From positions 39,489 through 103,488 of the forward strand of contig JAHFJA010000002.1 in NCBI GenBank assembly GCA_023246095.1: a stretch of DNA of 64,000 nucleotides, in the 5' to 3' direction. Under the pieces are notes generated by a model. That model did no database searches, had not been told where the DNA came from, and saw only the letters and a program-made list of their open reading frames with translations. The position numbers and the translations under genes were made by a program. This document shows, one piece after another, positions 3,401 to 63,418 of the stretch. Source of the DNA: a bacterium. Its GTDB lineage: Bacteria; Patescibacteriota; Patescibacteriia; JACQRZ01. Positions within the stretch are counted from its first letter, which is position 1, and each line of letters begins with the position of its first letter.

Positions 3401-4528
3401 TAAAATAGGTTCTTTGGGGACATTTTTGGCGTCAGTATCCCGTGTTTGTAGTTTTTCCTTTTCTAGTATTTCCGATACAGCCTTTTTTATACCCATAACC
3501 TCTGGAATTTGATCCAGTGCCGAAACATTATTTCGAGCGGCCTCAATCGCGCTTTTGAGATCTGAAGAACTTACATTATCGACATTTTTAATGTCTGTCC
3601 TTTCCATTTCGTCGATAATGTTCAAAAGGTCGCCAGTCGTTCTTGCACCATTAAACGCTTCTTCGAATAGTATCTTTTTCTCATCTTCCGTACCGTATTT
3701 TTTTATCAACTCACGATGAACAATGTAATCCTGAAACACACCTTTCTCTTTCCCCAACCATTTTTTAGTTCCTTCGCTTATTTGTACATTGTTGCGAATC
3801 CCTTTTTCGTTTCCTGTTGCAATAAAATCAAGATTCTCAACGATATTGGCTCGAAGATCTTTAGTTAGATCCTTAGTGTCAAGATAGTTGGGGATGTCAT
3901 ATTCATAACCCCCGACTTTTGCCTTCACACGGCACCTTATAACCACATCCTTTTTAATCTCACCTGCTTCGGCAGCTTGTTTAAGATTATCTACCACCTC
4001 CTGGTCAATCGCAAGCGAAAAACCGCCCCTTTTATTGAGCTCTTGGGTAAATTGATTAGATATATTTTCCGCTTCCCCTATTTCATTTTTAGAGTTCTTT
4101 TTGAGCGCTTCCGGTAGATTAAGTCCAAGACTGTCTGCATTTACGTCTACATCTTTCAATATCACGTTGCCGTCTTTTTCTATTTTTTTCTTTTTTGTCT
4201 TATGAAGATAGTAGTCACCACTTTTTTCATCTTGGTCAAACTTATACTTGAAGAAAGTGTTTTGTTCCTCTTGCTGTTCATTTTTTGGTGTGGCCTCCTT
4301 ATCTACCTTTTTAGACCGCTCAATACCAAGCTTTTCTGCAATACGATTCTTCATATCGTCATCCAATTCATCGCTATCTTCTACACTCATATCAAAAATA
4401 TACTTGTGCGGGTTCGCTTCTCCTGTAGGGGCTAAAGAAAGAGCGTCATTTACCTCTTGAACGCGCGTTTCAATCTCCGCTTCTCTCTCACGGGAAATTT
4501 GTTCTGGGGTTTTTGGTGCTTCTGACAT
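452..4528 (-). CDS. Giant (1358 aa) hypothetical protein: K/E-rich N-terminal ~700 aa that looks coiled-coil, two Gly/Ala-rich hydrophobic segments that look like transmembrane helices, and a ~300-aa C-terminal globular region; no P-loop found
   Basis: Uninterrupted ORF of 4.1 kb. Hydrophobic segments AGVGGIAGAAAGAAAGGWGSFAAY and GWGTAFALGAGAAAHYGVG. No GxxxxGK[ST] motif seen. Confidence 0.6.
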   Translation of the reverse strand: MSEAPKTPEQISREREAEIETRVQEVNDALSLAPTGEANPHKYIFDMSVEDSDELDDDMKNRIAEKLGIERSKKVDKEATPKNEQQEEQNTFFKYKFDQDEKSGDYYLHKTKKKKIEKDGNVILKDVDVNADSLGLNLPEALKKNSKNEIGEAENISNQFTQELNKRGGFSLAIDQEVVDNLKQAAEAGEIKKDVVIRCRVKAKVGGYEYDIPNYLDTKDLTKDLRANIVENLDFIATGNEKGIRNNVQISEGTKKWLGKEKGVFQDYIVHRELIKKYGTEDEKKILFEEAFNGARTTGDLLNIIDEMERTDIKNVDNVSSSDLKSAIEAARNNVSALDQIPEVMGIKKAVSEILEKEKLQTRDTDAKNVPKEPILDQGKDFIPGQGELMKNLLTLSKKAYQEAVAENKFFNVNDFLVANASYNSDIATEDFKNELTQQLKQEGIKDLVGGNVQAVLAEVLPSLRLLYEQSKRHPEAVAFDVDKYLDSFDSFQKLSNKEKTVFSQALTEARDGVGNQNNAILDVTGDPNKVIDIPKPEQVNTPEPEKGEPVWKKGDIIEFPTSRTPKMIYASFVIDSIDENGNVIVYSISKSGRRGTSPQPLSKSKMATDARRPQLVEPAKVEKTTSVVTAEPVKTGEPVVKSADVTPVDGSVVKQDATQELANTNNNEGTPPSTNPETPGGQPEGTGEVVGERTPESALKDAYFLAKNKYRDAQANFSKVKEQSDELQKAKRFLGLFDNAAKQTKRAEIEEELLKAQGIFEKAKTDFETQRAAYLSVELVNMMNEQSQEIDVRADKEGKWGRLAAGWKALGDMNLENYFKGKGSFQGEPKNKKEWALRFLARQASVRALLMAGVGGIAGAAAGAAAGGWGSFAAYRGLASWSTATLAGERAGGKKFESSSVVRLLGVDPFKETQLTKEMRDTIQGITDVGQAERCLSDMQAAMITQGFKTKETMALDMPPAYEEIFLRLLELKKESFVPQAEAPKAGDEVIQAPVETTPQIVLNEEESEGESAELDPRTQAILDYKKTLEESADKKLKEFKWDRLKAAGWGTAFALGAGAAAHYGVGKIADVAREAWVTDQPTAVLEKIGHTQAEYAKYAVNWQERLENIRGEINTKHTLASAKELSELRNIASWKGTELGTDAENVLKLIDRNPSILENSGIHELRVPHDLGELSLGEYIHKYAPKLVDDNKDLISKAETFFGTGAGELKIHGGDVLYFNVDHGAPTNMYFAGDSGHALGYQVDVQPDTLYAPIYENVISHHWGTSDKDGLYGLLRQKGSETLFHEYYGNKVGYLSGNMEKRLDDYIAALRHAKNPNDMSNPGVVFFKAFMENHSRELLSEEWAQKILAETQAVSK

Positions 4529-16647: not shown

Positions 16648-17706
16648 CTAACATCCCCAACTATTTGCTTTCAACTTATTATAATTCCCTTCAACCCGAG
16701 GGGCATAAACCCGAGTTTCCTTATACCCGGTGTTAACCTCGCATTCCCACAACGTCGTCCCAGAACAAGACGAACTGAGTCTATTTGCACCTGGCCCGCC
16801 ATTATATGCTGCTGCTAAATACTTAATCTGTGTCATATCACATCCAGATTGTGAATTAGTCGACCCACCATTGCAACCACCCGTTTTCAAGTCGCTCAAG
16901 TAAGCAGCAGCAGTGCGTGCATTGGTAAGTGGGTCAAAACTACTGCCCCCCGTAATATTATGACGGGACCTCACATCCGCCGCAGTGGCGGGCATAAGTT
17001 GAATAAGCCCCTGTGCCCCAACGGAACTTTGCGCGTTGGGGTTACCGCTTGACTCTGCAAACATAAATGCCTTTAAGAGTGTGCAATCAACACCCGGAAA
17101 TTCCGTGCTTGCACTTTTTAAGGCCGTATCGTATGTTGTGAGATTTTGAGATATACTCGCACTACCAACACCTTTCTCACCCCCACCACTACTTTGTTGC
17201 TGACGAATTTCCGCCACAGTAATGTCCATCTTTTGTATTGCCCCCAAACGTATCACTGGCCATTGAACCAGAACCGGATTGATAAGGTACAAGATAGAAT
17301 AAGCACCGAGAGTAAGAACGAGACCAATCAATGCATTCGATATAATTTTTATTGCTTTTTGTGTTTGCCCCGAAGAGCCTCTTGAAGTCATCCACTGCAT
17401 CCCTCCTACCATTAGCATTACCACGGCGATTATAGCCACCGCAGTAATTAACCACGCGTACAATTGTCCAAAATAGGTGGCCATACCTGTTGCCACAATA
17501 GTATTACCATCAGCAGTGATAAGTTTAACCTTTTCATCATACCCGTGAAAAGGAACTTGAAGTTTAAAATCGGGAAACAAACTCGAAGATTTTATAGCAT
17601 CATCAACAGCAAATACGCGATGAGGTGTAGCAATCCCCACAAAAAACAATATAACGATAGCCAACACCCCCACAAGGAAATATCTTACAAAAGACGAATG
17701 ACGCAT
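16648..17706 (-). CDS. Fusion protein: N-terminal TrbC/VirB2-like pilin module joined to a C-terminal SLT-family lytic transglycosylase domain
   Basis: Pilin-type motif MLMVGGMQWMTSRGSSGQTQKAIKIISNALIGLVLTLGAYSIL; SLT motif AESSGNPNAQSSVGAQGLIQLMPATA. Confidence 0.7.
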   Translation of the reverse strand: MRHSSFVRYFLVGVLAIVILFFVGIATPHRVFAVDDAIKSSSLFPDFKLQVPFHGYDEKVKLITADGNTIVATGMATYFGQLYAWLITAVAIIAVVMLMVGGMQWMTSRGSSGQTQKAIKIISNALIGLVLTLGAYSILYLINPVLVQWPVIRLGAIQKMDITVAEIRQQQSSGGGEKGVGSASISQNLTTYDTALKSASTEFPGVDCTLLKAFMFAESSGNPNAQSSVGAQGLIQLMPATAADVRSRHNITGGSSFDPLTNARTAAAYLSDLKTGGCNGGSTNSQSGCDMTQIKYLAAAYNGGPGANRLSSSCSGTTLWECEVNTGYKETRVYAPRVEGNYNKLKANSWGC

Positions 17707-18086: not shown

Positions 18087-19154
18087 CTATTCTTGAACCT
18101 CGTCTTGTTCTACATGCTTCAATGTTTCTGGGTGCACCATATATGATAAAGCTTCATCATGGCTAATCAATCCTTTTTTATATAAATCTTTCACACTGGT
18201 ATCCATAGTACACATCCCTTTTCCTGCATTTGTTTGTAACACTGTTTCAATCTGCTGCAACTTATTTTCCCGGATTAATGTCGCAACAGCAGGTGTATTA
18301 AGAAGCACTTCACGCACCGCAATACGCTGTTCGTTTTGCGTAACTACTAATCTTTGAGAAACAACTCCTTTAAGTGTCGTTGCAAGCTGCAAGCGAATCT
18401 GTGTTTGTTGGGAAGGAGGAAAAACATCAACAATACGGCTGATAGTTTCGGCGGCACTAAACGTGTGCAAGGTTGCAAACACCAAATGACCCGTTTCTGC
18501 CAATGTGATCGTTGCTGCAATAGTTTCTAAGTCTCGCATTTCCCCGACCATAATAACATTAGGATCTTGGCGTAAAACATACTTCAAACTTTCACTGAAC
18601 GATCGCATATCTTGTCCCAACTGTCGCTGCCGGATAATAGACTTATTGGGAGTAAAAAGAAACTCAATCGGATCTTCAAGAGTTATGATGTTTTCTCCGC
18701 GATTATTATTGATCGCATCAATCATGGAGGCAAGAGTAGTTGATTTACCACACCCTGCCGGACCCGTAATCAAGACAAGACCATTTTTCATGTTGATGAA
18801 ATTTTGTGCCGCCTCAGGAATATGCAAATCATCCATCGTGGGAATATCTACAGGTATAAGACGCGCCACAAGACCAACACTATTTTTTTCCCACATGAGG
18901 TTAATACGAAAACGCCCTACCCCTTCAATCTCGTGTGAAACGTCCAGCTCTTTTCCGTCATCAAAAAACTCTCTCTGCATTGGTGTCAGAACACTATACG
19001 CAAGATCTTGTACCGAACCTGGGGTCAGCACGTCTTGTTCTTCGATTTCTCGCAGACGCCCACCTGCACGAATAATAGGCCGCTTCCCCACATAGAGATG
19101 CAGATCAGAAGCGGCATGTTGTTGTGCGTAGGTAAGTAATTGATTGAGCGTCAT
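18087..19154 (-). CDS. pilT: PilT-family type IV pilus retraction ATPase (likely start at MTLNQLL; ORF extends to 19208)
   Basis: Walker A LITGPAGCGKSTTLASMIDAIN and the N-terminal AASDLHL motif; ~355 aa. Confidence 0.8.
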   Translation of the reverse strand: MTLNQLLTYAQQHAASDLHLYVGKRPIIRAGGRLREIEEQDVLTPGSVQDLAYSVLTPMQREFFDDGKELDVSHEIEGVGRFRINLMWEKNSVGLVARLIPVDIPTMDDLHIPEAAQNFINMKNGLVLITGPAGCGKSTTLASMIDAINNNRGENIITLEDPIEFLFTPNKSIIRQRQLGQDMRSFSESLKYVLRQDPNVIMVGEMRDLETIAATITLAETGHLVFATLHTFSAAETISRIVDVFPPSQQTQIRLQLATTLKGVVSQRLVVTQNEQRIAVREVLLNTPAVATLIRENKLQQIETVLQTNAGKGMCTMDTSVKDLYKKGLISHDEALSYMVHPETLKHVEQDEVQE

Positions 19155-19223
19155 AGACTTGAGTATAATTGGTAGTGATAGCCTGACACGAGGGAAAACG
19201 GTTGTCAATCCGACTACTCGTAC

Positions 19224-21518
19224 TTAATATATGCGGGTAAGTTGGATACCAGTATAGTAATGAGTCAAGATTTGACCAAACGTACTGCCTGCTGCTGCCA
19301 TCGCTACGGCACCGCGCGCTGACATTCCAACCCCGTGACCCCACAACTTCAATCCTGCACAAAATGGATCGTCTACGCTCTTTAACCACGGCTTTGCACT
19401 TCCTGCCCACACTTCTTCCCATGAACGAGTCCGTCCGTCACTATTTGAGAAATACGGAGTAATAACGATCGAACCGTTATACATAACAACAATTCCTTTT
19501 GTTTCATCCACTGCCCTTGAAAACTGGGGCATACGAACTTCTGCGCCATACCCACGGTACACCTGGTCTGCATCAGTGTTACGAACATTGAAGTTTTCGC
19601 CGGGATATTTGTTGGTACGCATCACAATCTTTGCATAGGTACGAGCAGCAATGACAAGGGATTTCTGGAATTCGTACGGTGAACTATTTGAAGTTTCCCC
19701 TGAACCCTTGAGATATTTCTCTAATGACAAGTCGTTAATCAACCACACTCGATCTTTAGATTCTGAATATCGCACTTCTACCACCGCACGAAATCGATTA
19801 TCGTTTAAAGTTGAACTCCATCCGGGATGATCAGTATAGGATACGATTTCAAAGATAGTATCTTGATCTGGTAAACCAACAAGTGGTGATCCAGTCCCTA
19901 CAAACCGAAGATACGTGGGTGATGTTGTAGTCAAAGAATCTGTCGTCAAAGTATAGATCTTTTGTGCGAAGTCAAAGCTCACTGTTGCAATACTTCCGGC
20001 CTGCAATGCTGCGATAATTTGTCCTTGTCCATTTCGCACGTCAAACGGCTTATTTGCAGTGACCTTTATTGGTTCACGGGAGTTAAAGATTCCAACGCGG
20101 ATATTTGATTCGCTCTCAGTAATAGCATCGACAACTGATGAACCTACCGTTGGGGTAATCACTGGGGCGTTAACAATCGGAGTATCTATAATAGGGGTAG
20201 GGATACCCTCTTGAGCGATTTGGACTTTTGGCGCCCCTTTGACCACCTGCACAGAGAGTACTGCAGTAGCTGAACTCAACGGGACAGAACCTCGATACAA
20301 CGTAAACGTTTCATTATAATTTCCTAAACTTGTCGGTGCTTCAACTTTAAAGGGTGTATAGATTACCTCTCCCGGCTTAACGTCTGTTTTCAGCGTAGCA
20401 ACCCACACCCCGTCATCCCAGGTAGAATGATGGAGATAACTTTCGACACGGGCCGAAGAACGAATACGAATAGGTGTTTCTCCTGCCTTCCACGTAGCGG
20501 TACCGGTATTTTTCCACCCAATCTGAAAATCAGCAGCTTGCAGCTGCCCAATAGTAAGATTTGTTGCCGACTGAATAAGTTTGGTCGCACTAAATGTCCC
20601 ACTTCCACTATCTGATATGACAGTAGGGGCGGTGGGTACAACATTAGAAACGGTTGAAACAACAGGCACCGACTTTGAACTAATTTGTGTATCAGGCACC
20701 CCGCTTCCCACCACCACCGTCAGTGTTGTGTCAGTGCCACTCACCTTCTGTCCAGCGTAACTCAAATAAAAGGTATCAGTATACACTCCATTCGCATCAG
20801 GGGCTTCAATAGTAACCGCAATGTAAATAAGTTCCCCTGGTTTTGCATTTGAAATCCAATCTTTCACCACTGTCGTTGACGCCCATGAACTATGTGCAAG
20901 ATAACTGCTTGTAGCTGATGAAGATCGCAAGCTCAAACCTTGAGAAGGCCACACTGTTGAACCTGTATTTTTTAAACCAATCATGAGATTAGCAGTACCT
21001 TTTTTCCCAAGGCTCATTGTTGATGCGCTCTGAATAAGACGAGTAGCGCTGACGGACTTACTTGCAGTCGTTGATGCGATAACAACCTTTGGGGTGGCCG
21101 CCTTAACTGTTGTCACTTTTTTAGTTGCGACAACAGAACTACTTTTAGTAGTGCTTGTCTTAGTATTTCCTTTTACAATAGAGAAATATGTACGCCCTTT
21201 CCCTGTGTAGGCATCCTTGTTGCTATTGTAATATGCGCTCCTATCGAGAGTACTATATTGAGTTACTGCGTTAACCTCCTGAATTGACGCTGATCTTGCG
21301 AGCCATGAATATACCAAACTATCTGAGTCCGGGATACGTGCTTTGGTTATTTTTTGAGTAACAACGTGTAATGTGAACGAGAGTCCTGCTACAATAAAAA
21401 GAGAAATTGCCATAGCGACAAGCACGCCTGACCATGACACCATCCCCTTTTTCGAATTGAGATTGATCATCCCGTTCGAGTTGTAGTTGTTTGGATTGTA
21501 ATTAAAAACGCCGTTCAT
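19224..21518 (-). CDS. Membrane-anchored protein with two Ig-like repeats and a C-terminal SpoIID/LytB domain
   Basis: C-terminal motifs LVIAARTYA, QVYRGYG, PYFSNSDGRTRSWEEVWG and WGHGVGMSARGAVAMAAAG; N-terminal TM helix. Confidence 0.75.
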   Translation of the reverse strand: MNGVFNYNPNNYNSNGMINLNSKKGMVSWSGVLVAMAISLFIVAGLSFTLHVVTQKITKARIPDSDSLVYSWLARSASIQEVNAVTQYSTLDRSAYYNSNKDAYTGKGRTYFSIVKGNTKTSTTKSSSVVATKKVTTVKAATPKVVIASTTASKSVSATRLIQSASTMSLGKKGTANLMIGLKNTGSTVWPSQGLSLRSSSATSSYLAHSSWASTTVVKDWISNAKPGELIYIAVTIEAPDANGVYTDTFYLSYAGQKVSGTDTTLTVVVGSGVPDTQISSKSVPVVSTVSNVVPTAPTVISDSGSGTFSATKLIQSATNLTIGQLQAADFQIGWKNTGTATWKAGETPIRIRSSARVESYLHHSTWDDGVWVATLKTDVKPGEVIYTPFKVEAPTSLGNYNETFTLYRGSVPLSSATAVLSVQVVKGAPKVQIAQEGIPTPIIDTPIVNAPVITPTVGSSVVDAITESESNIRVGIFNSREPIKVTANKPFDVRNGQGQIIAALQAGSIATVSFDFAQKIYTLTTDSLTTTSPTYLRFVGTGSPLVGLPDQDTIFEIVSYTDHPGWSSTLNDNRFRAVVEVRYSESKDRVWLINDLSLEKYLKGSGETSNSSPYEFQKSLVIAARTYAKIVMRTNKYPGENFNVRNTDADQVYRGYGAEVRMPQFSRAVDETKGIVVMYNGSIVITPYFSNSDGRTRSWEEVWAGSAKPWLKSVDDPFCAGLKLWGHGVGMSARGAVAMAAAGSTFGQILTHYYTGIQLTRIY

Positions 21519-43503: not shown

Positions 43504-44012
43504 ATAGTGGTGATAAAACTTAGCCTGCACCGGTCGTGCTCCTATATATAGAGGTCACGGCTAAAAGCGCGAGCATGGAGAGTTAAAAAGGGTGCGCCCA
43601 TACCAGACAATAGGGCAAAAGGAAATCACTCCTCTCTTTTGCTTACTACTATCATACGGCTGCCACGATAAAAGCTATGTAAGAACAAAAAATGCCCACC
43701 CAACAGGGGTGAGGAATTAAACCCGACTAAAATGATTGTGCCAAACGTGAAAATCCCATGGTATGCTTCCTTCCTTTATTACAACAAGAAGCGGTGTGTA
43801 TAAGCCATACTACCAGAATTTCGGAGAAAGTCAAGGAGAATAGGAGCAAGTAGGGCTGTCAACAAGGACAAGAAGCACTATTCATTATATTTTAGGCCCT
43901 TAATCATAAGGTTTTCGTCCGAAAATACCTTGACATCGAGTCACTGCACACGAAAATGTATCAACAGTTGGACCCCCTTAGTGCACATGTTATCCACAGC
44001 CACGAATCCTTA

Positions 44013-45365
44013 TTATACTGAGGATTTGGTGTTTTGCTTGATTGCCAAACGTGCCTCTCTCCTCTCATCCCATGCCTCTTTAGAACCACCGTGCCCCATG
44101 ATTGCTTGTTCAGCACCCTTGCCTGTCAAAAGAACAAAATCGCCTGTTTTGGCCAAACTACAGGCCGTATTTATGGCCTGCCGTCGATCCTGTATCACGA
44201 AAAGATTCTGCCCTTCTATTTTACCACCCTCAATGGCACCTTCCGCAACCTGTCTCACAATAACCTCCGGGTCCTCATCATAGGGATCTTCATTGGTCAC
44301 AATGACAATATCTGCGAAACGAGCTGCCATACCTCCCAAGACAGGCCTGCGCGCTAAATCACGCCCACCACCCGCCGAACCCAAGACATGGATAAAACGT
44401 CCTGTAGACCCCTTATAGACCTTCTCGAGATAATCATAGAGCGCCTGCAACGATGCCGGCTCAGGTGCATAGTCCACTAGGACTCGATACTCTTGTCCTT
44501 CTTCGATCCACTCCATTCGCCCCGGCAGTCCATGAGTAGACTGAAGTGAATCACGAAGAGTATCAATGGAAATTCCCAACTCCTGGACTGTCACATAGGC
44601 CGCTGCACTATTATATACGTTAAATAATCCTTCTAAACCCGTCTGTATACGATATTGATCCAACTGGAATGATGATCCTTTCTCACTGAACTCAATATTT
44701 TTTATTTCATATTGATGACCAAGAGAGTGATTCACTAATGTGTTCACCCCAAATCCAACCTTCTTGTCTGCACCAAAACTAAGAAAATAGCCGGCGTGCT
44801 CATCGTCGGTATTGGCGATAATGACTTTAGGCACTGGATGACCATCAAGAGTCTTTCTATAGGACGATAAGAGCGTAGAAAATAATTTTGCCTTAGCCGC
44901 TTTGTACTTCTCAAAACCTCCATGCGACTCTATGTGCTCAGGGGTCAAATTGGTAAAAAGTGCAACGTCAACATCAATACCGGCAAGCCTCCCTTGCACC
45001 AAACCCTCCGACGAAACTTCTATAACAGCGTGGGTGCATCCGTCTTTCACCATATCGGCAAGAAGAGACTGTAATTGGCTGCGTCCCAACATTGTCATTT
45101 TTGATGTATTTACCCATTCTCGCTCCCCCACCCGAAACATCACACTACTGGCAAGACCAACCTTCTTACCCGCCGCTTTCAAGAGATCGGCAATAAGAAT
45201 ACATGTGGTACTTTTTCCATTCGTGCCCGTAACGCCAACCACGATCAATTTCCGTGAAGGAAAACCATATCTCCATGCAGCAAAAAAAGTAAGGACCGTA
45301 TGATAGAGACGGAATAGTCCTTTTGGCGCAACCGCACGAATAATGTTTTTTATAGTATGAATCAT
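44013..45365 (-). CDS. MurE-family Mur ligase homolog lacking the N-terminal domain 1 and with DNPR replaced by EDPY
   Basis: P-loop GVTGTNGKSTT at residue ~45; blocks VIEVSSEGL, FTNLTPEHIESHG, GRMEW, VDYAPEP align to the B. subtilis MurE blocks recalled from memory. Confidence 0.65.
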   Translation of the reverse strand: MIHTIKNIIRAVAPKGLFRLYHTVLTFFAAWRYGFPSRKLIVVGVTGTNGKSTTCILIADLLKAAGKKVGLASSVMFRVGEREWVNTSKMTMLGRSQLQSLLADMVKDGCTHAVIEVSSEGLVQGRLAGIDVDVALFTNLTPEHIESHGGFEKYKAAKAKLFSTLLSSYRKTLDGHPVPKVIIANTDDEHAGYFLSFGADKKVGFGVNTLVNHSLGHQYEIKNIEFSEKGSSFQLDQYRIQTGLEGLFNVYNSAAAYVTVQELGISIDTLRDSLQSTHGLPGRMEWIEEGQEYRVLVDYAPEPASLQALYDYLEKVYKGSTGRFIHVLGSAGGGRDLARRPVLGGMAARFADIVIVTNEDPYDEDPEVIVRQVAEGAIEGGKIEGQNLFVIQDRRQAINTACSLAKTGDFVLLTGKGAEQAIMGHGGSKEAWDERREARLAIKQNTKSSV

Positions 45366-45913
45366 ACACCAATAAGTTTACGAAAAACTTGCACCGTCGC
45401 TTTCACATCATCAAGCGCACGATGAGTGGGACGATGAGAAATATTAAAATACGACGACATGGATGCGAGACTGTAACTTGGTAAATACAGCACTTTCTTT
45501 GCAATAAGTCGCGTATCCAAAATATGCCTATATTCAAGTGGCATACTATGCCGTATAGCTTGAAAATGCAATATCGGCAAGTCAAACGCTTTAACATTCT
45601 GACCTCCTACGATCCCCTCACCCAAGAATGAATTAAACTCATTCAAAACCTCTCTCATGGGAACACCTTGCGAGCGTAACGTATCGGGGTCAAGATTGTT
45701 TACTCCAAACGCTCCCCTGTCAGGGATGCCATCAAAATACACATACCGATGAAACGGTATTCCCACCGGTTCTTCTTTGGACAAAAGTTCGCCAGGTGAA
45801 AATTTTAATGCTCCAATTTCCAAAACGTCGGTGCTTACCGCAAGACCGTTTGTTTCAAGGTCAAAAAAAATAACCGAGTAATCAGAGATAAGTTCATGGA
45901 TTTCTTGCATCAT
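45362..45913 (-). CDS. DnaQ-like 3'-5' exonuclease (DEDDh)
   Basis: Exo I VIFFDLETNGL and Exo III HRALDDV motifs; 4-nt overlaps with both neighbours. Confidence 0.8.
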   Translation of the reverse strand: MMQEIHELISDYSVIFFDLETNGLAVSTDVLEIGALKFSPGELLSKEEPVGIPFHRYVYFDGIPDRGAFGVNNLDPDTLRSQGVPMREVLNEFNSFLGEGIVGGQNVKAFDLPILHFQAIRHSMPLEYRHILDTRLIAKKVLYLPSYSLASMSSYFNISHRPTHRALDDVKATVQVFRKLIGV

Positions 45914-46869
45914 AATGATCGCTTTACATGGCGCAATAACGTATAGAGAATATATGGAAGTTTCTTAAATGGTATATCAAATGTTCCTGGATAGGTTATC
46001 ACTTCTCCCCCAAACCCTTTCTTGAATCGCGTTACCCCCGCAAGCGGATGAGTGGAACTATCATCAGGAGCTACGCCCCAGAAATCATAATATCTATATC
46101 CTACATTTTTCGCATCGACCATGGCCTGCCACTGTAACAGATACGGTGCCATAACTTCTTTGTGCTCTTGCGTACTCGCACCGTAAAGGTAATACATAGT
46201 ATCACCGAAACCCACCATCACTGCCATTGCCACAACGCTCCCTTGCCATTTTGCCTGATAGAGCGTGATATACGGAAAACTGGTCAGAAGTTTCTGGTAA
46301 TACTCGCGTGAATGCACTGATATCTTATTGCGCTTTGCCGTCTCACTGCTTAACGCCCACCACATGGCAAGTTCATCCGAGGTTATTTCATTATATTTTT
46401 TTGCCGCCACTATAACTCCTTTCTTTTGAGAAAGATGAATATTGTATCGCGTTTTTGGATGCATTACCGACAACAGTTCATTTTCTGTTTTTGAAAGATC
46501 AACAATGCGTGTGTGTGAAGGTTCCACGTCGCGAACATGCGTCGCTTTCATTGGTACAGACTCAATTGGTTCTATGCGCGCAAATTGTGCACCTTGTTCA
46601 TGTGACCATTTGATAAATTCTTTTGACCAGACATCGCTTGGTACACCAACAGGACCACGAGGACACATCAAATAAAACATGGTTCCCTTAAGAGGATACG
46701 CGATAGCCAGACAACGAACCGATTCTTTTTGTTCACCCCCTCCTAGATACCACACACGCCTCCCTAGTGATTTTTGAAATACTCCCCATTCATAGGATTG
46801 CAAAAACTGAGCATGGGGCTGTCCTGCTATATATGCATTCCATTCTTGTGGAGTACCGGAAAATTCCAT
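45910..46869 (-). CDS. FemAB-family peptidoglycan peptide-bridge aminoacyltransferase (FemX/MurM-sized, no coiled-coil insert)
   Basis: Blocks CPRGPV, YYLYGASTQEHKEVMAPYLLQWQAM and VTRFKKGFGGEV match FemA blocks recalled from memory. Confidence 0.75.
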   Translation of the reverse strand: MEFSGTPQEWNAYIAGQPHAQFLQSYEWGVFQKSLGRRVWYLGGGEQKESVRCLAIAYPLKGTMFYLMCPRGPVGVPSDVWSKEFIKWSHEQGAQFARIEPIESVPMKATHVRDVEPSHTRIVDLSKTENELLSVMHPKTRYNIHLSQKKGVIVAAKKYNEITSDELAMWWALSSETAKRNKISVHSREYYQKLLTSFPYITLYQAKWQGSVVAMAVMVGFGDTMYYLYGASTQEHKEVMAPYLLQWQAMVDAKNVGYRYYDFWGVAPDDSSTHPLAGVTRFKKGFGGEVITYPGTFDIPFKKLPYILYTLLRHVKRSL

Positions 46870-47460: not shown

Positions 47461-50376
47461 TTATTCCAAAGATACCTGTACGTTATAACTCTCAAGTTTT
47501 ATAGGAGTCATACTTTCTTTCGCTTCCCCTACAACTACTGATGATGCTGATACCTGACGAACAAGATCCTCGCTGTTTCGAAGTACGAGTTCTTCAATTT
47601 CCGCATCCGCATGAATAGTTACAACAACGCGATCTTGAATCGTCAGCCCTTTATCTTTACGTAACGCATTTATCTGTCGCACTATATCGCGAAGCAAACC
47701 CTCTTCTCTCAACTCTTCAGTTATCAGCGTATCCAACACAACAGAATAATGAGAGTCATCACTACTTTCTATTGTGGAACCAGCGGGAAGTTGTTCCACC
47801 AACTCTATGCGTTTCACGTTTACCTCTTCAGAAAGAAGATAGTATAGATCAGAATCAATTGAGGTCTTGGTGATGTACAGCGTGTTTAGTGGTTGTCGAA
47901 CCTTGATACCCGCTTTGGAACGAACTGAGAGGGCACGCTCGATCAATATGCGAACTGTTTCCATTTGTTCGATGTTTTCTCTATGCACGAGTTCGGGAGA
48001 AAATGCCGGCCATGTTTCCAAATGAACCGATGGTTTTTTTGCACTCCACGGGCCAAGACCTCGATATACTTCATCGGCCATGAATGGACATAGTGGTGCC
48101 AACAATTTTGCCGTCTCGCGCAAAATGAAAAATAACGTTGCCCCCGCGTCAATCCGGCTATCCGCCGATTCATCTTTGATGCGATCACGAATACGTCGAA
48201 CATACCATTGGGAAAGTTCGGTGATGAATTCAGACACTATTCGCGTAGCAGCAGACAGATCATAACTTTCCAACCTTTCGGTCATTTCTTGTACAGTAAG
48301 TTCAAGCCTTGATAGAGCCCAGCGATCAAGCGGGTCGCGAACCGTACTCATGTCATACCCTTCAAACTGTTCCGGTGTAGGAAAATACATCGAGTAAAAC
48401 GTAAATACATTCCAAAAAGTATTTACCACTTTGCTATATACTTCACGCACTTCCTTTTCGGAAAAATTTAAATCTTCAGATTTTACAATGGGCGATGACA
48501 TAAGATAAAACCGTAGTGCATCAGCACCATACTCATTCATCACCGCCATGGGGTCAGGATAGTTTTGCAATCGCTTGCTCATTTTTTGTCCGTCTTCGGC
48601 GAGCACAATGCCGTTTACCAAAACATTTTTAAACGCCTGCTTTCCTACAAACGCACTTGAGATGACGTTAAGATAATAAAACCAACAACGAGTCTGATCG
48701 ACACCTTCTGCGATAAAATCGGCCGGAAAATTAACTCCCCCTTCCGGATCAAAATCTTCCAGTGGTTTCCCCAGATAATGATTCTGCGCAAATGGCATTG
48801 ATCCGGAATCAAACCATGTATCCAACACTTCCGGAATACGATTCATCTGCCCCCCACAAGAACACGGAAAAACAATGAGATCAACAATGTGTTTATGAAG
48901 ATCGTTAACTTCTTGTCCTGAACGTTCTTTGAGCTCAGCCAATGACCCAATCACCTCCACTGTGTCACAGTGATCACACTTCCAAACAGGCATGACCGAT
49001 GCCCAGAACCGTTCTCTTGAAATCGCCCAATCGCGCGCACCTTCAAGCCACTGTCCCGCGCGACCCTCTTTTAGGTGTGTAGGAAACCAGTACGTCTTAC
49101 TATTGTTATCAAGCAATGTATCCTTTACTTGGGTCACTTTCACAAACCATGAAGACTTTGCGTAATTTAATAACGGAGTATCACAACGCCAACAGTGCGG
49201 ATATGAGTGCTCATATTTTTCTTTGGAAAACAGTAGTTGTTTGCTCGCTAAGTATTTGATGATTTCTACATCAGCCGCTTGATGATCATCTTTTGATTTG
49301 ACGAGCTGTCCTGCCCAATCCGTCACATCTGCAGTAAAGCGGCCATCCATACCAACGTGTTGAATAAACGGTAAGTCCTTTTCTAGTCCAAGACGATAAT
49401 CATCTTCACCAAACGCCGGAGCAATATGGACAACACCAGTCCCATCAGTGTCCGTCACAAATGAAGCAGCCTGTATCGTGTACAGCTGTTCACTATTTTT
49501 CAAATTCTTATCTTGAAAAAAAGGAAACAGTGGTAGATATGTTTTACCGATATATGATTGGATATCAATACTGTGTTGCAGTACTGTATATGGTTTGTCT
49601 GAAAAAACTTTTTCAACGAGAACTGATGCAACAATATACTTGCCTCCCTCCCACTGGACAAGGTCATAATTAATTTCAGGATTTATTGCCAGCGCAACAT
49701 TTCCCGGCAACGTCCATGGTGTCGTTGTCCATGCAAGAAAATGCGTATCAGGTGAATCAGTGAGAGTAAACTTGGCGATAACAGAAAGATCCTTAATTGT
49801 CTTGTACCCTTCCGCAACTTCTGAATGTGATAATGTCGTCTCACATCGCGGGCAAATATGCATCGACTTGTACCCTTCATACACTAACCCTTTATTCCAC
49901 AACTCTTTAAACACCCACCACACAGATTCCATAAACCCCAGATCCATGGTCTTGTAGTCGTTATCCATATCAACCCAGCGACCAAGCCGTCTGATATATG
50001 ATTTCCAGTCTTGAGCATACTCCAATACTTTCGAACGGCATTGTTCGTTAAACTTGTCGACGCCATAGGCGACGATGTCCTTCTTTGATTGGAACCCCAA
50101 TTCTTTTTCTACAAGATTCTCAATAGGCAAACCATGACAATCCCACCCCCACCGGCGAGGAACATTAAATCCTTGCATTGTCTTGAATCGAGGGATAACA
50201 TCTTTCAAACAGCTCGCCACGATATGACCATAGTGAGGTAACCCCGTTGCAAAAGGAGGACCATCATAAAATACAAACGTCGGCGATTCTTTTCGCTGAT
50301 CAAGACTTTTTTGAAATATCTGCTCCTCTTCCCAGAAGGCCAAGATACGTTCTTCCATTGATGGTATTTCTTTCAT
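47461..50376 (-). CDS. ileS: Isoleucyl-tRNA synthetase, type 2 (eukaryote/archaeal-like HYGH variant)
   Basis: HIGH-region PPFATGLPHYGH, KMSKRLQN (KMSKS) motif, 971 aa. Confidence 0.85.
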   Translation of the reverse strand: MKEIPSMEERILAFWEEEQIFQKSLDQRKESPTFVFYDGPPFATGLPHYGHIVASCLKDVIPRFKTMQGFNVPRRWGWDCHGLPIENLVEKELGFQSKKDIVAYGVDKFNEQCRSKVLEYAQDWKSYIRRLGRWVDMDNDYKTMDLGFMESVWWVFKELWNKGLVYEGYKSMHICPRCETTLSHSEVAEGYKTIKDLSVIAKFTLTDSPDTHFLAWTTTPWTLPGNVALAINPEINYDLVQWEGGKYIVASVLVEKVFSDKPYTVLQHSIDIQSYIGKTYLPLFPFFQDKNLKNSEQLYTIQAASFVTDTDGTGVVHIAPAFGEDDYRLGLEKDLPFIQHVGMDGRFTADVTDWAGQLVKSKDDHQAADVEIIKYLASKQLLFSKEKYEHSYPHCWRCDTPLLNYAKSSWFVKVTQVKDTLLDNNSKTYWFPTHLKEGRAGQWLEGARDWAISRERFWASVMPVWKCDHCDTVEVIGSLAELKERSGQEVNDLHKHIVDLIVFPCSCGGQMNRIPEVLDTWFDSGSMPFAQNHYLGKPLEDFDPEGGVNFPADFIAEGVDQTRCWFYYLNVISSAFVGKQAFKNVLVNGIVLAEDGQKMSKRLQNYPDPMAVMNEYGADALRFYLMSSPIVKSEDLNFSEKEVREVYSKVVNTFWNVFTFYSMYFPTPEQFEGYDMSTVRDPLDRWALSRLELTVQEMTERLESYDLSAATRIVSEFITELSQWYVRRIRDRIKDESADSRIDAGATLFFILRETAKLLAPLCPFMADEVYRGLGPWSAKKPSVHLETWPAFSPELVHRENIEQMETVRILIERALSVRSKAGIKVRQPLNTLYITKTSIDSDLYYLLSEEVNVKRIELVEQLPAGSTIESSDDSHYSVVLDTLITEELREEGLLRDIVRQINALRKDKGLTIQDRVVVTIHADAEIEELVLRNSEDLVRQVSASSVVVGEAKESMTPIKLESYNVQVSLE

Positions 50377-51207: not shown

Positions 51208-51564
51208 TTACTCCTTTATTGGGCTAAGAAGTTTCTTCAATGTCGGTATATCCTCCTTCAATGTGTCCCACAGTATTGGTAACTCAATGTCGTCGTAGTG
51301 ATGAATCAATTTATCTCGCATTCCTGCCATTTCTCTCCAAGGAATATCCGGATATTGTTTTTTCATCGACAATGAAATACGTTTTGCCGCTTCACCGATT
51401 ATTTCAATACGCCGAATAATAGCATCTTGTGTTTTAGTATCACCAGCGAAAGAAGTTTTCTTTACACCCTTAATATAACTTTCTATCGCATAGATAGAAT
51501 CGGCAATATGCTTAACGTATAACTGATCCCTCTTAGAAGAGTCGTTTTTTTTCTTTGTTGACAT
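51208..51564 (-). CDS. hepT: HepT-family (DUF86) toxin RNase
   Basis: Rx4HxY motif RDKLIHHY; 118 aa; overlaps the upstream MntA-like gene. Confidence 0.75.
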   Translation of the reverse strand: MSTKKKNDSSKRDQLYVKHIADSIYAIESYIKGVKKTSFAGDTKTQDAIIRRIEIIGEAAKRISLSMKKQYPDIPWREMAGMRDKLIHHYDDIELPILWDTLKEDIPTLKKLLSPIKE

Positions 51565-51823
51565 TTGAGCGCATGTGTTTACAAAGACTCTCTTCGGTTA
51601 TGAGATCCACTCTCTTACCAATGAGGTCCTCTATTTGAAATTGCAAACCGAGAAGTCCTAAAAGGGTAACTTTCTTATTCTTTTTGAATGTGACAAGAAG
51701 ATCAAGATCACTCGTTTTTTTTGCATCTCCTCGCGCGTACGAGCCAAATATATGAGCGCGAGAAACTCCCGATTTCTTTAAAATCGGTATTGTATTTGAA
51801 AATTGTTGTATAGCTTGTTCCAT
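51533..51823 (-). CDS. mntA: MntA-family minimal nucleotidyltransferase antitoxin
   Basis: The GS-hG motif block FGSYARGDAKKTSDLDLLV with acidic residues; 96 aa; upstream of and overlapping hepT. Confidence 0.75.
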   Translation of the reverse strand: MEQAIQQFSNTIPILKKSGVSRAHIFGSYARGDAKKTSDLDLLVTFKKNKKVTLLGLLGLQFQIEDLIGKRVDLITEESLCKHMRSNVNKEKKRLF

Positions 51824-53617: not shown

Positions 53618-56215
53618 TTAAAAATCTGAACCAATACAATCCTTGTCAAAATATATTCCACCAGGACTAAACAAATTACCATTTTCGTACCTAGCACTAC
53701 ACGTCATATATCGATACATCGATGGAAGACCCGAACCTACTGTTGCTGGGTGCATATCTATTTTTAATATACCGAGATCCATTTCAAGAGCTACTCCAAC
53801 AAATAAGTTTCGACCTACATATGTCTCATTAGCTGAAGACAAATCTCCACCAGAAACAATATCGCCATCAGCAACAATATTACGCCCAACAGTAAGATCT
53901 CGCCCCACATCGGTATCTCTACCTGAATGTAAGCGATCTCCACCTATTTCTCCTGTTACACCAATATTCCCTCCGTGAGTAAGGTCAGTTAAACTACCTA
54001 TTAAAGCTATATCTTTCCCGTTTGCTACATATCCAGCATCAAGAACTGCTTGAAGATCACCAGATCCCCCTGTCCCTGTACCCCCCGGCCAATCTGTTCT
54101 ACAAACACCACCGATACAGACATTTCCCTTGAAATTTGCAAGCCCCTCAAACGTGGCTTGCTCTCTAAACCAAGAAAAATCGTCAACTTGTAGTGCATTT
54201 TGATGCAGCCCTCCAATCATAGGTAGTGCCTCAATTTGTAATCCACCTTGAAGGTTAATTTTATTGTTCGTAACAGCCCCCAGGTCTGTAACTTGTTGCA
54301 ACGTGCCCACTGAACCGCTTCCTGACGGATATGTGATAACGTTTGTAATTGACGTACTATCATTGGTATCTCCAAGATTATCTTTGCCACACCCCCAACC
54401 AGTGCCATTATACTTGAGTACTTGCTGGCTGGAACAGGAAGGCAACTGCATAGGTGATGGCCAACCAATTCTGCAATCTGTTCCTATACAAACCGTTGGT
54501 GCCTTTAATTGCATATTTGACGTAATAGCACCCGTAGCCGTGATTATACCGCCTGATACAATCTGGCCAGTAGTAGTAACGGAACCGGCACTTAGTGTAC
54601 GGATCTGCATATCTTGAGTTGGTGCCTGATTGTTAATAGCAAGAACATCACCAAGACCTTGATTTCCTACCTTAAGAACAAGCCGGTCCGGTGACCAAGT
54701 ACTGATACATGTTGCTCCATTAAGACATATCGAGGGTGTAGTCACCGAGGTTGTTGCAGTAATCGCTCCTGCGGTTAACGCCCCACTACCCGCATTAATA
54801 CCAGCTCCGTTGGTGACAATACCCCCATTGGCCGACAAAAGTCCCGTAAACGTCCCCGTACCTCCGCTAATAGGACCAGTTCCAGCATTAATACCAGCTC
54901 CGTTGGTGACTACACCCCCATTAGCAGTTAAGAGTCCTGTGATAGTGGTGGCGCCTGTAACACCAAGTTTACCTTTTAGTGTCGTATCATTCGATACATC
55001 TAACGTTCCATTGATGGCGGTATTGCCCCCGATAGTCAAACGATTCCCTGCTACAGGCGGTGTTCCGATACCGACCAATCCATTTATTTGAAGATTCCCA
55101 TAACTACCGGAAGGACTCGTCCCGTTTACACTCAATAAATCCCCCGTTGATGCGCCCTCCAGAACACTCACTGCATTAACTCCCGTCCCCACTCCGATCT
55201 GGTACTTTCCTGTTTTGGAAGCAGTACCCGACTGTATCGTCCCATTCACATCAAGTGGTACTGCGGGGTTTGCTCTCCCAATACCCACAAGTCCGTTTAT
55301 CGCAACATTAGTATAAGCATTAGAACCCCCAATTGGCCCGTTGATGTTCAGTAAGCTTCCATCAGCCACGGAAGATTCTATTGCCGACTTACCTCCAATT
55401 TGAAATTTTCCTAGATTATTAGCCGTACTTGATTGCACTGTCCCGTTTACATCAAGCGCTGTCGCGGGACTAACATTCCCGATCCCCATCCTATTATTCA
55501 AAAGCGTAACAAACTTGTTTATAATCCCCCCATTTTTTATGTCCAAATTCCCTGCGGCTTCCATATTTCCGTCAGTGTCGACGCGAAACTTTTTAACAAA
55601 CCCTTTTTCAAACAACAGAAAATTCGGCGTAGTAAGCGGGTTACCTGTAGAGAACGTATTATTATGCACATTTCCAAACAAAAGATTTGTCCCTGCAGCC
55701 AAGATAGGACCCGGGCTAATAGGGCCCAGAGCAACATCAAACACGGTACCCAAAGTTGTCATACCCCCGATAGCGGTTGTCTCATCCCCATCTTGGTCCA
55801 GCACGACCCCGTGTGTCGTAAAGCGTCCCTTGTTCGTCACGTCTTGAAGTGAAGGACTGATGTTCAGCCAATCACTTCGACAATCAGGACTCGAGGCAGG
55901 TCCAAAACAAAGAGTGGAAACAACAAGCCTGCCCCCTGCACTACTTCCCAACACCATATCACCCAAAAATTTGGAAGCATCGGCGCTAATATCAAGAACA
56001 CTTTTTAACCCCCCAGGACCAGCACCCGTATCTGGTTGTCCGTAGGGAGGAAGCTGTACCGGCTCTTTAAACGCTGCCTGTGCAACCTGGTGACCCATGA
56101 ACACGAACAAGGCAACCGCGACCACCAAAAAAGGAAGCAGTACTTTTTTTGTAGTGGCTATCCCCTTCTTCGACTTTAGTTCTGATGATGTTGATATGTT
56201 CTTTATCTCTTTCAT
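53618..56215 (-). CDS. Giant (865 aa) secreted Gly/Thr/Asn-rich repeat protein, beta-helix / fibre-like
   Basis: N-terminal signal/TM LLPFLVVAVALFVFMGHQVAQA; repeated GIGxxxPxxxLDVNGT(V/I)QS units; two ~31-aa tandem repeats NGG(V/I)VTNGAGINAG(T/S)G. Confidence 0.6.
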   Translation of the reverse strand: MKEIKNISTSSELKSKKGIATTKKVLLPFLVVAVALFVFMGHQVAQAAFKEPVQLPPYGQPDTGAGPGGLKSVLDISADASKFLGDMVLGSSAGGRLVVSTLCFGPASSPDCRSDWLNISPSLQDVTNKGRFTTHGVVLDQDGDETTAIGGMTTLGTVFDVALGPISPGPILAAGTNLLFGNVHNNTFSTGNPLTTPNFLLFEKGFVKKFRVDTDGNMEAAGNLDIKNGGIINKFVTLLNNRMGIGNVSPATALDVNGTVQSSTANNLGKFQIGGKSAIESSVADGSLLNINGPIGGSNAYTNVAINGLVGIGRANPAVPLDVNGTIQSGTASKTGKYQIGVGTGVNAVSVLEGASTGDLLSVNGTSPSGSYGNLQINGLVGIGTPPVAGNRLTIGGNTAINGTLDVSNDTTLKGKLGVTGATTITGLLTANGGVVTNGAGINAGTGPISGGTGTFTGLLSANGGIVTNGAGINAGSGALTAGAITATTSVTTPSICLNGATCISTWSPDRLVLKVGNQGLGDVLAINNQAPTQDMQIRTLSAGSVTTTGQIVSGGIITATGAITSNMQLKAPTVCIGTDCRIGWPSPMQLPSCSSQQVLKYNGTGWGCGKDNLGDTNDSTSITNVITYPSGSGSVGTLQQVTDLGAVTNNKINLQGGLQIEALPMIGGLHQNALQVDDFSWFREQATFEGLANFKGNVCIGGVCRTDWPGGTGTGGSGDLQAVLDAGYVANGKDIALIGSLTDLTHGGNIGVTGEIGGDRLHSGRDTDVGRDLTVGRNIVADGDIVSGGDLSSANETYVGRNLFVGVALEMDLGILKIDMHPATVGSGLPSMYRYMTCSARYENGNLFSPGGIYFDKDCIGSDF

Positions 56216-62086: not shown

Positions 62087-63418
62087 TTAATAGATTATTG
62101 CGTTGGGACAGTCTACTTTCCATCTTTCATCCATGCCAATAAATTCTGTGGTTCCACAGGATGTCGCATTAGGACAGTAGAACTTATTATGAATTGTTAC
62201 GTCCAAAAACGCCTTATTTTGACAGTCAGTAGATGAGATAGACTCGCTGGTATGAAATGCAGTCCCTGATCCATTGGTATTATACGATACACAGCATACC
62301 CCATTTGAAATAACTACAGGAGCGCCACATTTCCCTGCGGTACACTGTCCTGTCTTACATTGTGCAGGGTCTGTACATGCTTCATTATCGTTCTTTTTTA
62401 ACTCACAAGTACCATTCGCAGGGTCGTTTGGGTTAGTACAGTACTGAGTCCCCGCACATTGCGCTTGCATTGGTGGAACCTCACATTTTTGACCCGTTAA
62501 TTTTATCGGCAACACACAGCAACACTTGTTTCCTGTAATAAGATATGACGATACAAACACTCGATTCTTGTTTGTCTGATTACTCGCGACCGCGTCACAA
62601 ACAGCGCTTCCAAAACCACAATCACTGTTAGCTATAAAATGATCCGTACTAGTACAAGACTCATCTTTACAATGATAGCAATACGGTGCTGCGCCCACCC
62701 CTGTACTAAACTCAAATTTTCCCGCACCACACATTTGCAATGCTTTGGCCGAGGCCTCGGCGTACGTTACATAACAGCCACCCTGACTTTGCGCTTGAGT
62801 TTGAGCTAGTTGTATCTCCGGCACCACCCCAATCGTTCCAAAGTGTATCGGCGTACAAATATCTGCTTGATATGACCATTTGCTAGTACCATTAAAAATT
62901 CCTCCCAGACGACCTGCAAGTGTCTTGTCGCCCGTTTCTTTTTTAATCAAACTAGTCATAACAAAGTTTACCGCCATCCAGCTGGTAAACACAATCACGA
63001 GCCCAATCGCGGCGTTGACCATCGTCTCTGTCCCTTTTGTCACTTTCCCTTTATCCCCCGCCGAAGTTAAATACTGAAAGCCCCCCAACACCACCATCAA
63101 AAGCGCGACACTGCCGCTTATGCCCAGAATAAACGTTGCGATATTGATAGCAAGCTGAATAAACGCATCCAAGGTATAATTACAACACAACATATCGCAC
63201 ATCGGGATGATCTTGCTTATAAGCTCACCTGATTGCGGTGCACACATTGCCGGTCCCCCTGCACATCCCCCAGGAACAAACGACGCTGTTGATTTACCCG
63301 CCAATGTCGAATCTGCCCACACCAGCGTAGCAGTAGCGCCGATGCTGGCGATAACCATAACGCCAAAAAGAAATGACAGTATGGCGAGGCGGTATTTTTT
63401 TGGATGACGAAGTTTCAT
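62087..63418 (-). CDS. TrbC/VirB2-like pilin module fused to a ~300-aa Cys-rich C-terminal ectodomain
   Basis: Motif LGGFQYLTSAGDKGKVTKGTETMVNAAIGLVIVFTSWMAV, followed by a domain with >35 Cys (CCCVLP, CTAGKCG, CCVSY and others). Confidence 0.65.
   Translation of the reverse strand: MKLRHPKKYRLAILSFLFGVMVIASIGATATLVWADSTLAGKSTASFVPGGCAGGPAMCAPQSGELISKIIPMCDMLCCNYTLDAFIQLAINIATFILGISGSVALLMVVLGGFQYLTSAGDKGKVTKGTETMVNAAIGLVIVFTSWMAVNFVMTSLIKKETGDKTLAGRLGGIFNGTSKWSYQADICTPIHFGTIGVVPEIQLAQTQAQSQGGCYVTYAEASAKALQMCGAGKFEFSTGVGAAPYCYHCKDESCTSTDHFIANSDCGFGSAVCDAVASNQTNKNRVFVSSYLITGNKCCCVLPIKLTGQKCEVPPMQAQCAGTQYCTNPNDPANGTCELKKNDNEACTDPAQCKTGQCTAGKCGAPVVISNGVCCVSYNTNGSGTAFHTSESISSTDCQNKAFLDVTIHNKFYCPNATSCGTTEFIGMDERWKVDCPNAIIY

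Follow-up and report, generated by a model that had tools for sequence, protein, structure and literature searches.

A gene for a two-domain form of the peptidoglycan ligase MurE lies in a 64,000-nucleotide stretch of a Patescibacteriota genome (GenBank assembly GCA_023246095.1, contig JAHFJA010000002.1, forward-strand positions 39,489 to 103,488; hereafter the window, meaning the whole stretch that was analysed). The protein is a MurE by sequence score and by fold, and domain 1, the uridine-binding domain of ~90 residues, is truly absent from it. Its short N-terminus is a signature of the clade and not the result of a local truncation, as is an EDPY motif at the position of the DNPR motif by which other MurE enzymes recognize meso-diaminopimelate (DAP). 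The short ligase is most likely the housekeeping MurE of its lineage, and its gene forms part of an operon with femX, which encodes a Fem-type aminoacyltransferase, and a gene for a DEDDh exonuclease.

Mur ligases, which serve as antibiotic targets, have a textbook three-domain build, and to our knowledge the N-terminal domain holds the uridine diphosphate (UDP) of the substrate in every solved MurC–F structure. A large bacterial radiation with a naturally domain-1-less MurE is a ready-made test of the share of that domain in substrate recognition. As a clade-wide Patescibacteria trait, the two-domain MurE with EDPY appears to be a new variant of a known enzyme, seemingly undescribed, and the literature searched held nothing specific on a MurE without domain 1 or on wall composition in the candidate phyla radiation (CPR). 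The genes are already in public records as MurE, FemA/FemB family and 3'-5' exonuclease, and earlier literature already notes a Fem-type gene in OD1 and peptidoglycan synthesis as part of OD1 genomes. For this locus the outcome is mostly deflationary, the three genes being nothing unusual within a housekeeping block of Patescibacteria, and the two-domain MurE is of moderate relevance to specialists in Mur ligases and the CPR.

A two-domain MurE conserved across Patescibacteria

The NCBIfam murE model TIGR01085 scored 334.1 bits on the ligase, above its family cut-off of 257.3. Other NCBIfam models gave 106 bits (cyanophycin synthetase), 70 (MurD), 59 (MurF) and 45 (MurT and FolC), with MurC likewise within the 106–45 range, and the DAP- and Lys-specific MurE equivalog models stayed below their cut-offs (e.g. 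314 vs 373 and 215 vs 536 bits). We built an AlphaFold (AF2) model from a 27-sequence alignment (mean predicted local distance difference test score, pLDDT, 88.5; predicted template modelling score, pTM, 0.88) and compared it with solved structures using Foldseek. The template modelling (TM) score was 0.81 to the S. aureus MurE product complex 4c13 (root-mean-square deviation 2.9 Å) and 0.80 to E. coli MurE (1e8c), vs 0.44 to MurT, and the top 34 matches were all MurE or plant MurE-like proteins. Identities as MurT, CapB, FolC or cyanophycin synthetase are ruled out by these scores and by the fold.

The ligase keeps its catalytic elements, and no family member varies in them: the P-loop, E116-x-S118-S119, H144, K158 (at the position of the carbamylated Lys), D336 and R339. 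A GGGRD..RR segment is present as well. Placement as MurE rests on model scores, fold and gene context, which bring the protein close to an orthodox MurE with lineage-typical variants.

Several comparisons show the absence of domain 1. Pfam recognizes only Mur_ligase_M and Mur_ligase_C, with no match to the N-terminal Mur_ligase domain (PF01225), and the TIGR01085 alignment runs from profile position 70, matched by query residue 25, to position 471 of 472. In BLASTP against a canonical MurE, residue 20 of the query pairs with residue 89. A domain hidden by a start-codon miscall or a frameshift is ruled out: the reading frame, taken stop to stop, opens only four codons before the ATG, and the DNA upstream encodes the exonuclease in another frame, so no correction of the start can supply domain 1. 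A miscall is also contradicted by hundreds of relatives with the same start. The sequence-only reading had described a MurE-like ligase lacking domain 1 and had raised the miscall as a possible error; the description held.

In place of domain 1, the model has a 36-residue helical hairpin, situated where the domain would join. Conserved positions in the 27-sequence alignment are P14, Y21-H22, L25 and P36-S37, and residues 1–20 are modelled with low confidence (pLDDT 63–74). In S. aureus MurE the uridine nucleoside site lies in domain 1, and UDP-N-acetylmuramoyl(MurNAc)-tripeptide is bound predominantly by domain 2 (PMC3829189).

The same architecture recurs throughout the homologues. At E ≤ 1e-10, a search with the ligase yielded 7578 proteins. 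The 120 that were listed all have 429–465 residues and the M and C domains only, and those with names, which are many, are called MurE (NCBI/PGAP, JGI) in Parcubacteria, Uhrbacteria, Falkowbacteria, Komeilibacteria, Buchananbacteria and other 'Patescibacteria group' bacteria. Of the 150 best representatives of 50%-identity clusters, about 145 have an N-terminus no more than a few residues away from that of the query, and some of the longer exceptions are fusions with domains of unrelated kinds.

Across 80 GTDB species representatives of Patescibacteria, the P-loop lies at residue ~43–60 in nearly all loci. With the window added (81 sequences), [E/D]DPY is present in 78, the N-terminal YH in 76 and KMTM[P/L]GR in 65, and in the 27-sequence alignment N-E-D-P-Y-D, the P-loop and the N-terminal signature are invariant or nearly so.

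Some short MurE proteins carry additional domains (P0354, P0387, P0362 and P0269), either a riboflavin kinase at the N-terminus or an archease or DUF192 domain at the C-terminus; in one locus (L012) a separate riboflavin-kinase-like open reading frame (ORF) precedes murE. The long homologues P0354 and P0387 were considered as carriers of domain 1 and ruled out, both being riboflavin-kinase fusions. In a 979-residue protein from another lineage (P0389), two complete MurE-like units of the canonical kind stand in tandem, with DNPR in the first and DNAE in the second.

Gene neighbourhoods and place in the pathway

Two arrangements recur in the 80 species neighbourhoods. In the first, murD is followed by the short murE, a gene for a bPH protein and one for DivIC, then often by ftsE-ftsX; in the second, which is that of the window, ruvA, an optional femX and the short murE precede rpoB-rpoC. 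Upstream of the short murE, murD is found within 400 nt in 13 of the 80 species and at some distance or other in 20, and ruvA in 30. Downstream, bPH/DivIC genes occur in 32 species and rpoB in 12, while mraY-ftsW-murG lies a few kb upstream in several loci.

In ABY1-type genomes (L002, L005, L007, L008 and ~30 more loci) the short murE precedes genes for a membrane bPH-domain protein and a DivIC-like protein, and often ftsE-ftsX after these. This conserved division and wall cluster differs from the classical division and cell wall (dcw) order, with mraY-ftsW-murG apart and neither murF nor murE beside mraY.

The ligase upstream of the short murE in the first arrangement is a full-length MurD (TIGR01087, 345–377 bits, aligned from profile position 1–4), from which it follows that UDP-MurNAc-L-Ala-D-Glu is made in these organisms. 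Beyond murD and the short murE, no Mur ligase was found in the ±10-kb flanks (~1.4 Mb in total), nor was a further one found in the window by phmmer against all six-frame ORFs, and a search of 86 Patescibacteria loci for MurC, MurF and full-length MurE recovered murD alone. In a published core-gene table for Parcubacteria, each genome, a complete one among them, has a single entry for murE and a single one for murF (PMC4508563). Adjacency to murD, the lack of another MurE-like gene in the flanks and the core-gene table make a housekeeping MurE the most economical reading, and the short form would then be the only MurE of the genome. The sequence-only reading had proposed a non-canonical step in stem-peptide or cross-bridge synthesis. 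Such a step is not supported: the short N-terminus and EDPY are found clade-wide in a protein named MurE, often encoded directly after a full-length murD.

A housekeeping short MurE might still work in complex with a partner, most plausibly MurD, which would hold the UDP and hand over the dipeptide intermediate. Such a complex would suit the loss of the uridine-binding domain from MurE, and with murD as an immediate neighbour in a sixth of the species there is room for substrate hand-over. Mur ligase complexes and natural fusions, such as MurE-MurF, are also known (PMC10214165). However, the window and ~30 of the 80 species have murE away from murD, no MurD-MurE fusion occurs among the top 150 representatives, where the fusion partners are riboflavin kinase, archease and DUF192, and the conserved hairpin with Y21-H22 may itself replace domain 1. 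We consider such a complex unlikely.

An accessory enzyme acting beside an orthodox MurE, either on a lipid-linked precursor as MurT does or in some other non-canonical step, is very unlikely. The sequence-only reading had raised a MurT-like action on a lipid-linked substrate as a possibility, and two features agree with such an enzyme: MurT also lacks the N-terminal UDP-binding domain, and the linked Fem transferase has staphylococcal relatives that act on lipid II. The sequence and fold nevertheless point elsewhere. The MurT model gave 45 bits against a cut-off of 800, compared with 334 bits for the murE model; the TM score was 0.44 to MurT vs 0.81 to MurE; the C-terminal domain is Mur_ligase_C and not DUF1727; and the three Cys residues of the ligase are isolated, with no CxxC zinc ribbon. 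The gene context disagrees as well, since the neighbours of the ligase gene are those for the exonuclease and RpoB, with none that is GatD-like, in 13 species the short murE comes directly after murD, and the ~1.4 Mb of flanks contain no orthodox MurE. Because MurD retains the domain that binds UDP and mraY is also present, UDP-linked intermediates are to be expected between the two.

The clade-wide loss of the uridine-binding domain from MurE opens a broader possibility. Precursor assembly in the cytoplasm could follow a different order in Patescibacteria, with the third residue added to a precursor that is not recognized via UDP, being either membrane- or lipid-linked or handed over in a MurD–MurE complex, and with D-Ala-D-Ala possibly added likewise. 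We attach little probability to a changed order or to either form of it. If it were true, FemX would act in the same compartment, and MurF might show a parallel loss of its UDP domain.

Third residue, branch and exonuclease

Returning to the short ligase as the housekeeping MurE, its motif bears on which residue it adds. In the alignment to M. thermoresistibile MurE (8g6p), TNEDPYDEDP stands opposite TDDNPRDEDP, which agrees with the replacement of DNPR by EDPY noticed in the sequence-only reading: Asn becomes Asp, Arg becomes Tyr, and a Glu stands just before. The Asn and Arg of DNPR in DAP-type MurE hydrogen-bond the distal carboxylate of meso-DAP, and S. aureus MurE has DNPA at the motif, with D406 and E460 holding the Lys amine (Ruane et al., PMC3829189). 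Given that DNPA, EDPY speaks against DAP specificity and not against MurE membership. With these substitutions the ligands of the carboxylate are lost and more negative charge is brought in, as would suit a cationic side chain (L-Lys or L-Orn), and judging by the motif the short MurE probably adds such a residue and not meso-DAP. A diamino acid that is proteinogenic or scavenged would also cost less, since OD1 genomes lack amino-acid biosynthesis.

The product of femX matches PF02388 at 157 bits (cut-off 24; 7.9e-46) and lacks a coiled-coil insert. It contains the conserved C-terminal FK(K/G)GF region, in which RFKKGFGGE pairs with KFKKGYNAE of FemA, and among solved structures its best matches are S. 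aureus FemA and FemX, followed by W. viridescens FemX. None of the characterised NCBIfam subtypes (FemX_Wv, lipid II FemX, MurM/N) is reached, the best equivalog scoring 49 bits vs a cut-off of 500. The 1722 homologues at E ≤ 1e-10 have ~300–355 residues, come mostly from Patescibacteria and are mostly named 'peptidoglycan bridge formation glycyltransferase FemA/FemB family'; a 'pentaglycine bridge' protein has been reported for most OD1 genomes.

In 15 of the 80 species a femX on the same strand precedes the short murE, and in seven the two genes touch or almost touch. This linkage points to a functional connection in which the third residue is added and then branched, and a Lys/Orn-type branched stem peptide is plausible. 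The most conserved adjacency is that of ruvA and femX, which is kept where murE is elsewhere, and the genes between femX and murE in other species (sugar nucleotidyltransferase, MgtE, CofD, DUF1003, TPR/Wzy) are mutually unrelated. The block behaves as inherited housekeeping synteny, with femX and murE a frequent but not obligatory pair.

Part of the earlier suggestion on wall chemistry is retained, namely the departure from the DAP type and the Fem-linked branch; the special lipid-acting step is not. Clade-wide EDPY and a frequent FemX neighbour yield a testable prediction for CPR walls: Lys or Orn at position 3, with a branch. In five loci (L010, L012, L026, L061 and L071) from several Patescibacteria lineages, a sugar nucleotidyltransferase gene (~245 aa, PF00483) directly follows femX and may be another wall-precursor gene tied to FemX.

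The exonuclease matches RNase_T (PF00929) at 66 bits (cut-off 24; 6.3e-18) and has all five DEDDh residues (D18, E20, D111, H164 and D169). PolC/DnaQ proofreading domains are closest to it, with the T. maritima PolC exonuclease domain as the best solved match, and it falls far below all NCBIfam epsilon, PolC and DEDD equivalog cut-offs. Only nine homologues were found at E ≤ 1e-5, five of them 70–100% identical and two 38–39% identical. Where the context of the close relatives is readable, the same exonuclease-murE arrangement is present (L089, and P0121 and P0122 on the contigs of the corresponding MurE). The gene is absent from 78 of the 80 MurE loci and from two other FemX loci, and a metagenome scan with the exonuclease alignment returned only generic DnaQ homologues of 250–280 aa (24–34% identity), none beside FemX.

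We infer that the protein is a lineage-restricted DNA or RNA exonuclease, a passenger in a ruvA-containing block and not a conserved partner. Its five close and two moderate relatives, and an Uhrbacteria locus with FemX, exonuclease and rpoB but no MurE, speak against a general partnership with the wall genes; the sequence-only reading had called the exonuclease an unexpected partner. A functional tie to FemX, for instance through RNase T-like action on the 3' ends of aminoacyl-donor tRNAs, would suit the RNase_T family match, the ATGA coupling on both sides and the presence of an exonuclease gene directly after femX in Uhrbacteria and of a distant DEDD gene in the FemX-MurE block of Kerfeldbacteria, but the family is tiny, it is missing from 13 of the 15 FemX-containing MurE loci as well as the two further FemX loci, its best solved relatives are proofreading domains of DNA polymerases, and the DNA-repair gene ruvA accounts for a DNA exonuclease in the block equally well, so that we give this idea scarcely any credence.

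The explanation that we prefer, and hold to be likely as a whole, combines a housekeeping short MurE that adds Lys or Orn, a branch made by FemX and a passenger exonuclease. The short MurE would add the third stem-peptide residue, in an ATP-dependent step, to UDP-MurNAc-L-Ala-D-Glu, the product of MurD, with the 36-residue helical hairpin having taken the place of the uridine-binding domain in the clade. An enzyme of the FemX family would then use aminoacyl-tRNA to place a branch residue on the side-chain amine of the third residue, giving a Gram-positive-like cross-bridged wall. The exonuclease would be a nucleic-acid enzyme that is co-translated with the wall genes and takes no part in wall synthesis, and ileS-ruvA-femX-[exo]-murE-rpoBC would be an inherited, tightly packed housekeeping block.

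Several points weigh against this explanation. The core-gene table gives one orthologue per genome by construction, and the scans covered the flanks and the window, so that a second full-length murE could lie elsewhere in the genome. MurF of Patescibacteria, the next enzyme, was not recovered from the loci. The preference for Lys or Orn is drawn from motif reasoning only, and in S. aureus MurE specificity is not fixed by the motif itself (Ruane et al., PMC3829189); moreover, the uridine site is in domain 1 in every solved MurE (PMC3829189). Nor is the placement of the exonuclease entirely random. An orthologue with 38% identity follows FemX in Uhrbacteria (L090, 8001–8585), where the order is ileS-ruvA-femX-exo-rpoB-rpoC and murE lies elsewhere, and a very distant DEDD gene stands between femX and murE in a Kerfeldbacteria genome. 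The Uhrbacteria order points to an ancestor with a ruvA-femX-exo-murE-rpoB block, which murE would later have left to join murD.

Locus layout and comparison with known systems

The translationally coupled trio described in the sequence-only reading is present as three minus-strand ORFs, with 4-nt ATGA overlaps, read directly from the sequence, at both junctions (Table 1). A 4-nt overlap is found in just three of the window's 46 same-strand neighbour pairs, two of them being the trio junctions, which indicates that the coupling is real and atypical for the window. With ruvA 4 nt upstream of femX and ileS 5 nt upstream of ruvA, the coupled unit comprises five genes (ileS-ruvA-femX-exo-murE) and not three.

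The operon lies upstream of rpoBC, murE being followed by a 480-nt spacer and then by rpoB and rpoC. A terminator-like hairpin in the spacer is the likely 3' limit of the operon, as judged from a consensus scan. The spacer (43531–44012, minus strand) also contains a promoter-like site at 43834–43807 (TTGACT / TG-TAGTAT) and a 9-codon ORF, and together with the hairpin these could form a leader or attenuator for rpoBC. An Rfam scan of the window found two tRNAs only, with no match in the spacer.

Table 1. Features of the ileS-murE operon and of the short ligase, in window coordinates
Feature	Position	Strand	Basis
ileS (isoleucyl-tRNA synthetase), 971 aa, first gene of operon	47461..50376	minus	Pfam tRNA-synt_1/Anticodon_1 on identical gene
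ruvA, 193 aa	46874..47455	minus	Pfam RuvA_N/HHH_5
femX (FemABX family), 319 aa	46869..45910	minus	ORF and Pfam PF02388
femX/exonuclease stop/start overlap, ATGA	45910..45913	minus	sequence reading
DEDDh exonuclease, 183 aa	45913..45362	minus	ORF and Pfam PF00929
exonuclease/murE stop/start overlap, ATGA	45362..45365	minus	sequence reading
short two-domain murE, 450 aa	45365..44013	minus	ORF, Pfam, NCBIfam and fold
36-residue N-terminal helical hairpin (helices 2–12 and 15–32) in place of domain 1	45258..45365	minus	AF2 model and alignment
P-loop GVTGTNGKSTT, residues 44–54, ATP-binding	45204..45236	minus	invariant in 27-sequence alignment and across 80 loci
EDPY, residues 359–362, at DAP-recognition DNPR position	44280..44291	minus	alignment to 8g6p
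terminator-like hairpin and T-run in murE-rpoB spacer, ~300 nt past murE stop	43695..43713	minus	consensus scan only

The rest of the window holds typical Patescibacteria/CPR genes, including those for IF-2, RNase Y, YmdB, RecA, FtsK and proteins with T4SS-pilin domains, as well as very large ORFs without a Pfam match, which are likewise typical of the group. Three minus-strand ORFs of 1358, 891 and 865 aa (452–4528, 5918–8593 and 53618–56215) have no Pfam match at all. The T4SS_pilin domain occurs in two proteins encoded on the minus strand (16648–17706 and 62087–63418), one of which is fused to an SLT lytic transglycosylase domain; genes for a T2SSE-type ATPase (18087–19208) and a SpoIID-domain protein (19224–21518) lie nearby. 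Just upstream of the ileS operon (51208–51823, minus strand), a HepT-like toxin gene (118 aa) overlaps a gene for an MNT-type antitoxin nucleotidyltransferase (96 aa), forming a type VII toxin–antitoxin pair.

Among known systems, the exonuclease compares best with the DnaQ/PolC proofreading domains, having the five DEDDh residues and the size of a stand-alone epsilon-like domain. It differs from them in scoring below the equivalog cut-offs, in being fast-evolving and confined to a narrow lineage, and in having no recognisable polymerase-binding tail. The FemX of the window belongs clearly with FemX/FemA/FemB/MurM by its PF02388 match and its conserved FKKGF, and it is short and without the coiled-coil insert, as is W. 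viridescens FemX, but it lies below every specific NCBIfam equivalog cut-off (49 vs 500 bits).

MurT, the subunit that forms lipid II isoglutaminyl synthase with GatD, resembles the short ligase in having a Mur-ligase fold without the N-terminal UDP-binding domain. It differs in its DUF1727 domain, its Cys4 zinc ribbon and its obligatory GatD, none of which accompanies the short ligase (45 bits, TM 0.44). Closest of all is MurE itself, both the L-Lys type of S. aureus (4c12/4c13) and the DAP type of E. coli and M. tuberculosis. These enzymes have the same central and C-terminal domains (TM 0.80–0.81) and share with the short ligase the P-loop, the carbamyl-Lys position and the other catalytic residues, and relatives of the short ligase are encoded beside murD. 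The short ligase departs from them in having the conserved 36-residue hairpin where they have the ~90-residue domain 1, EDPY where they have DNPR (DAP type) or DNPA (S. aureus), MTM[P/L] in place of TTP, and DYAPEP in place of DYAH(T/K)P.

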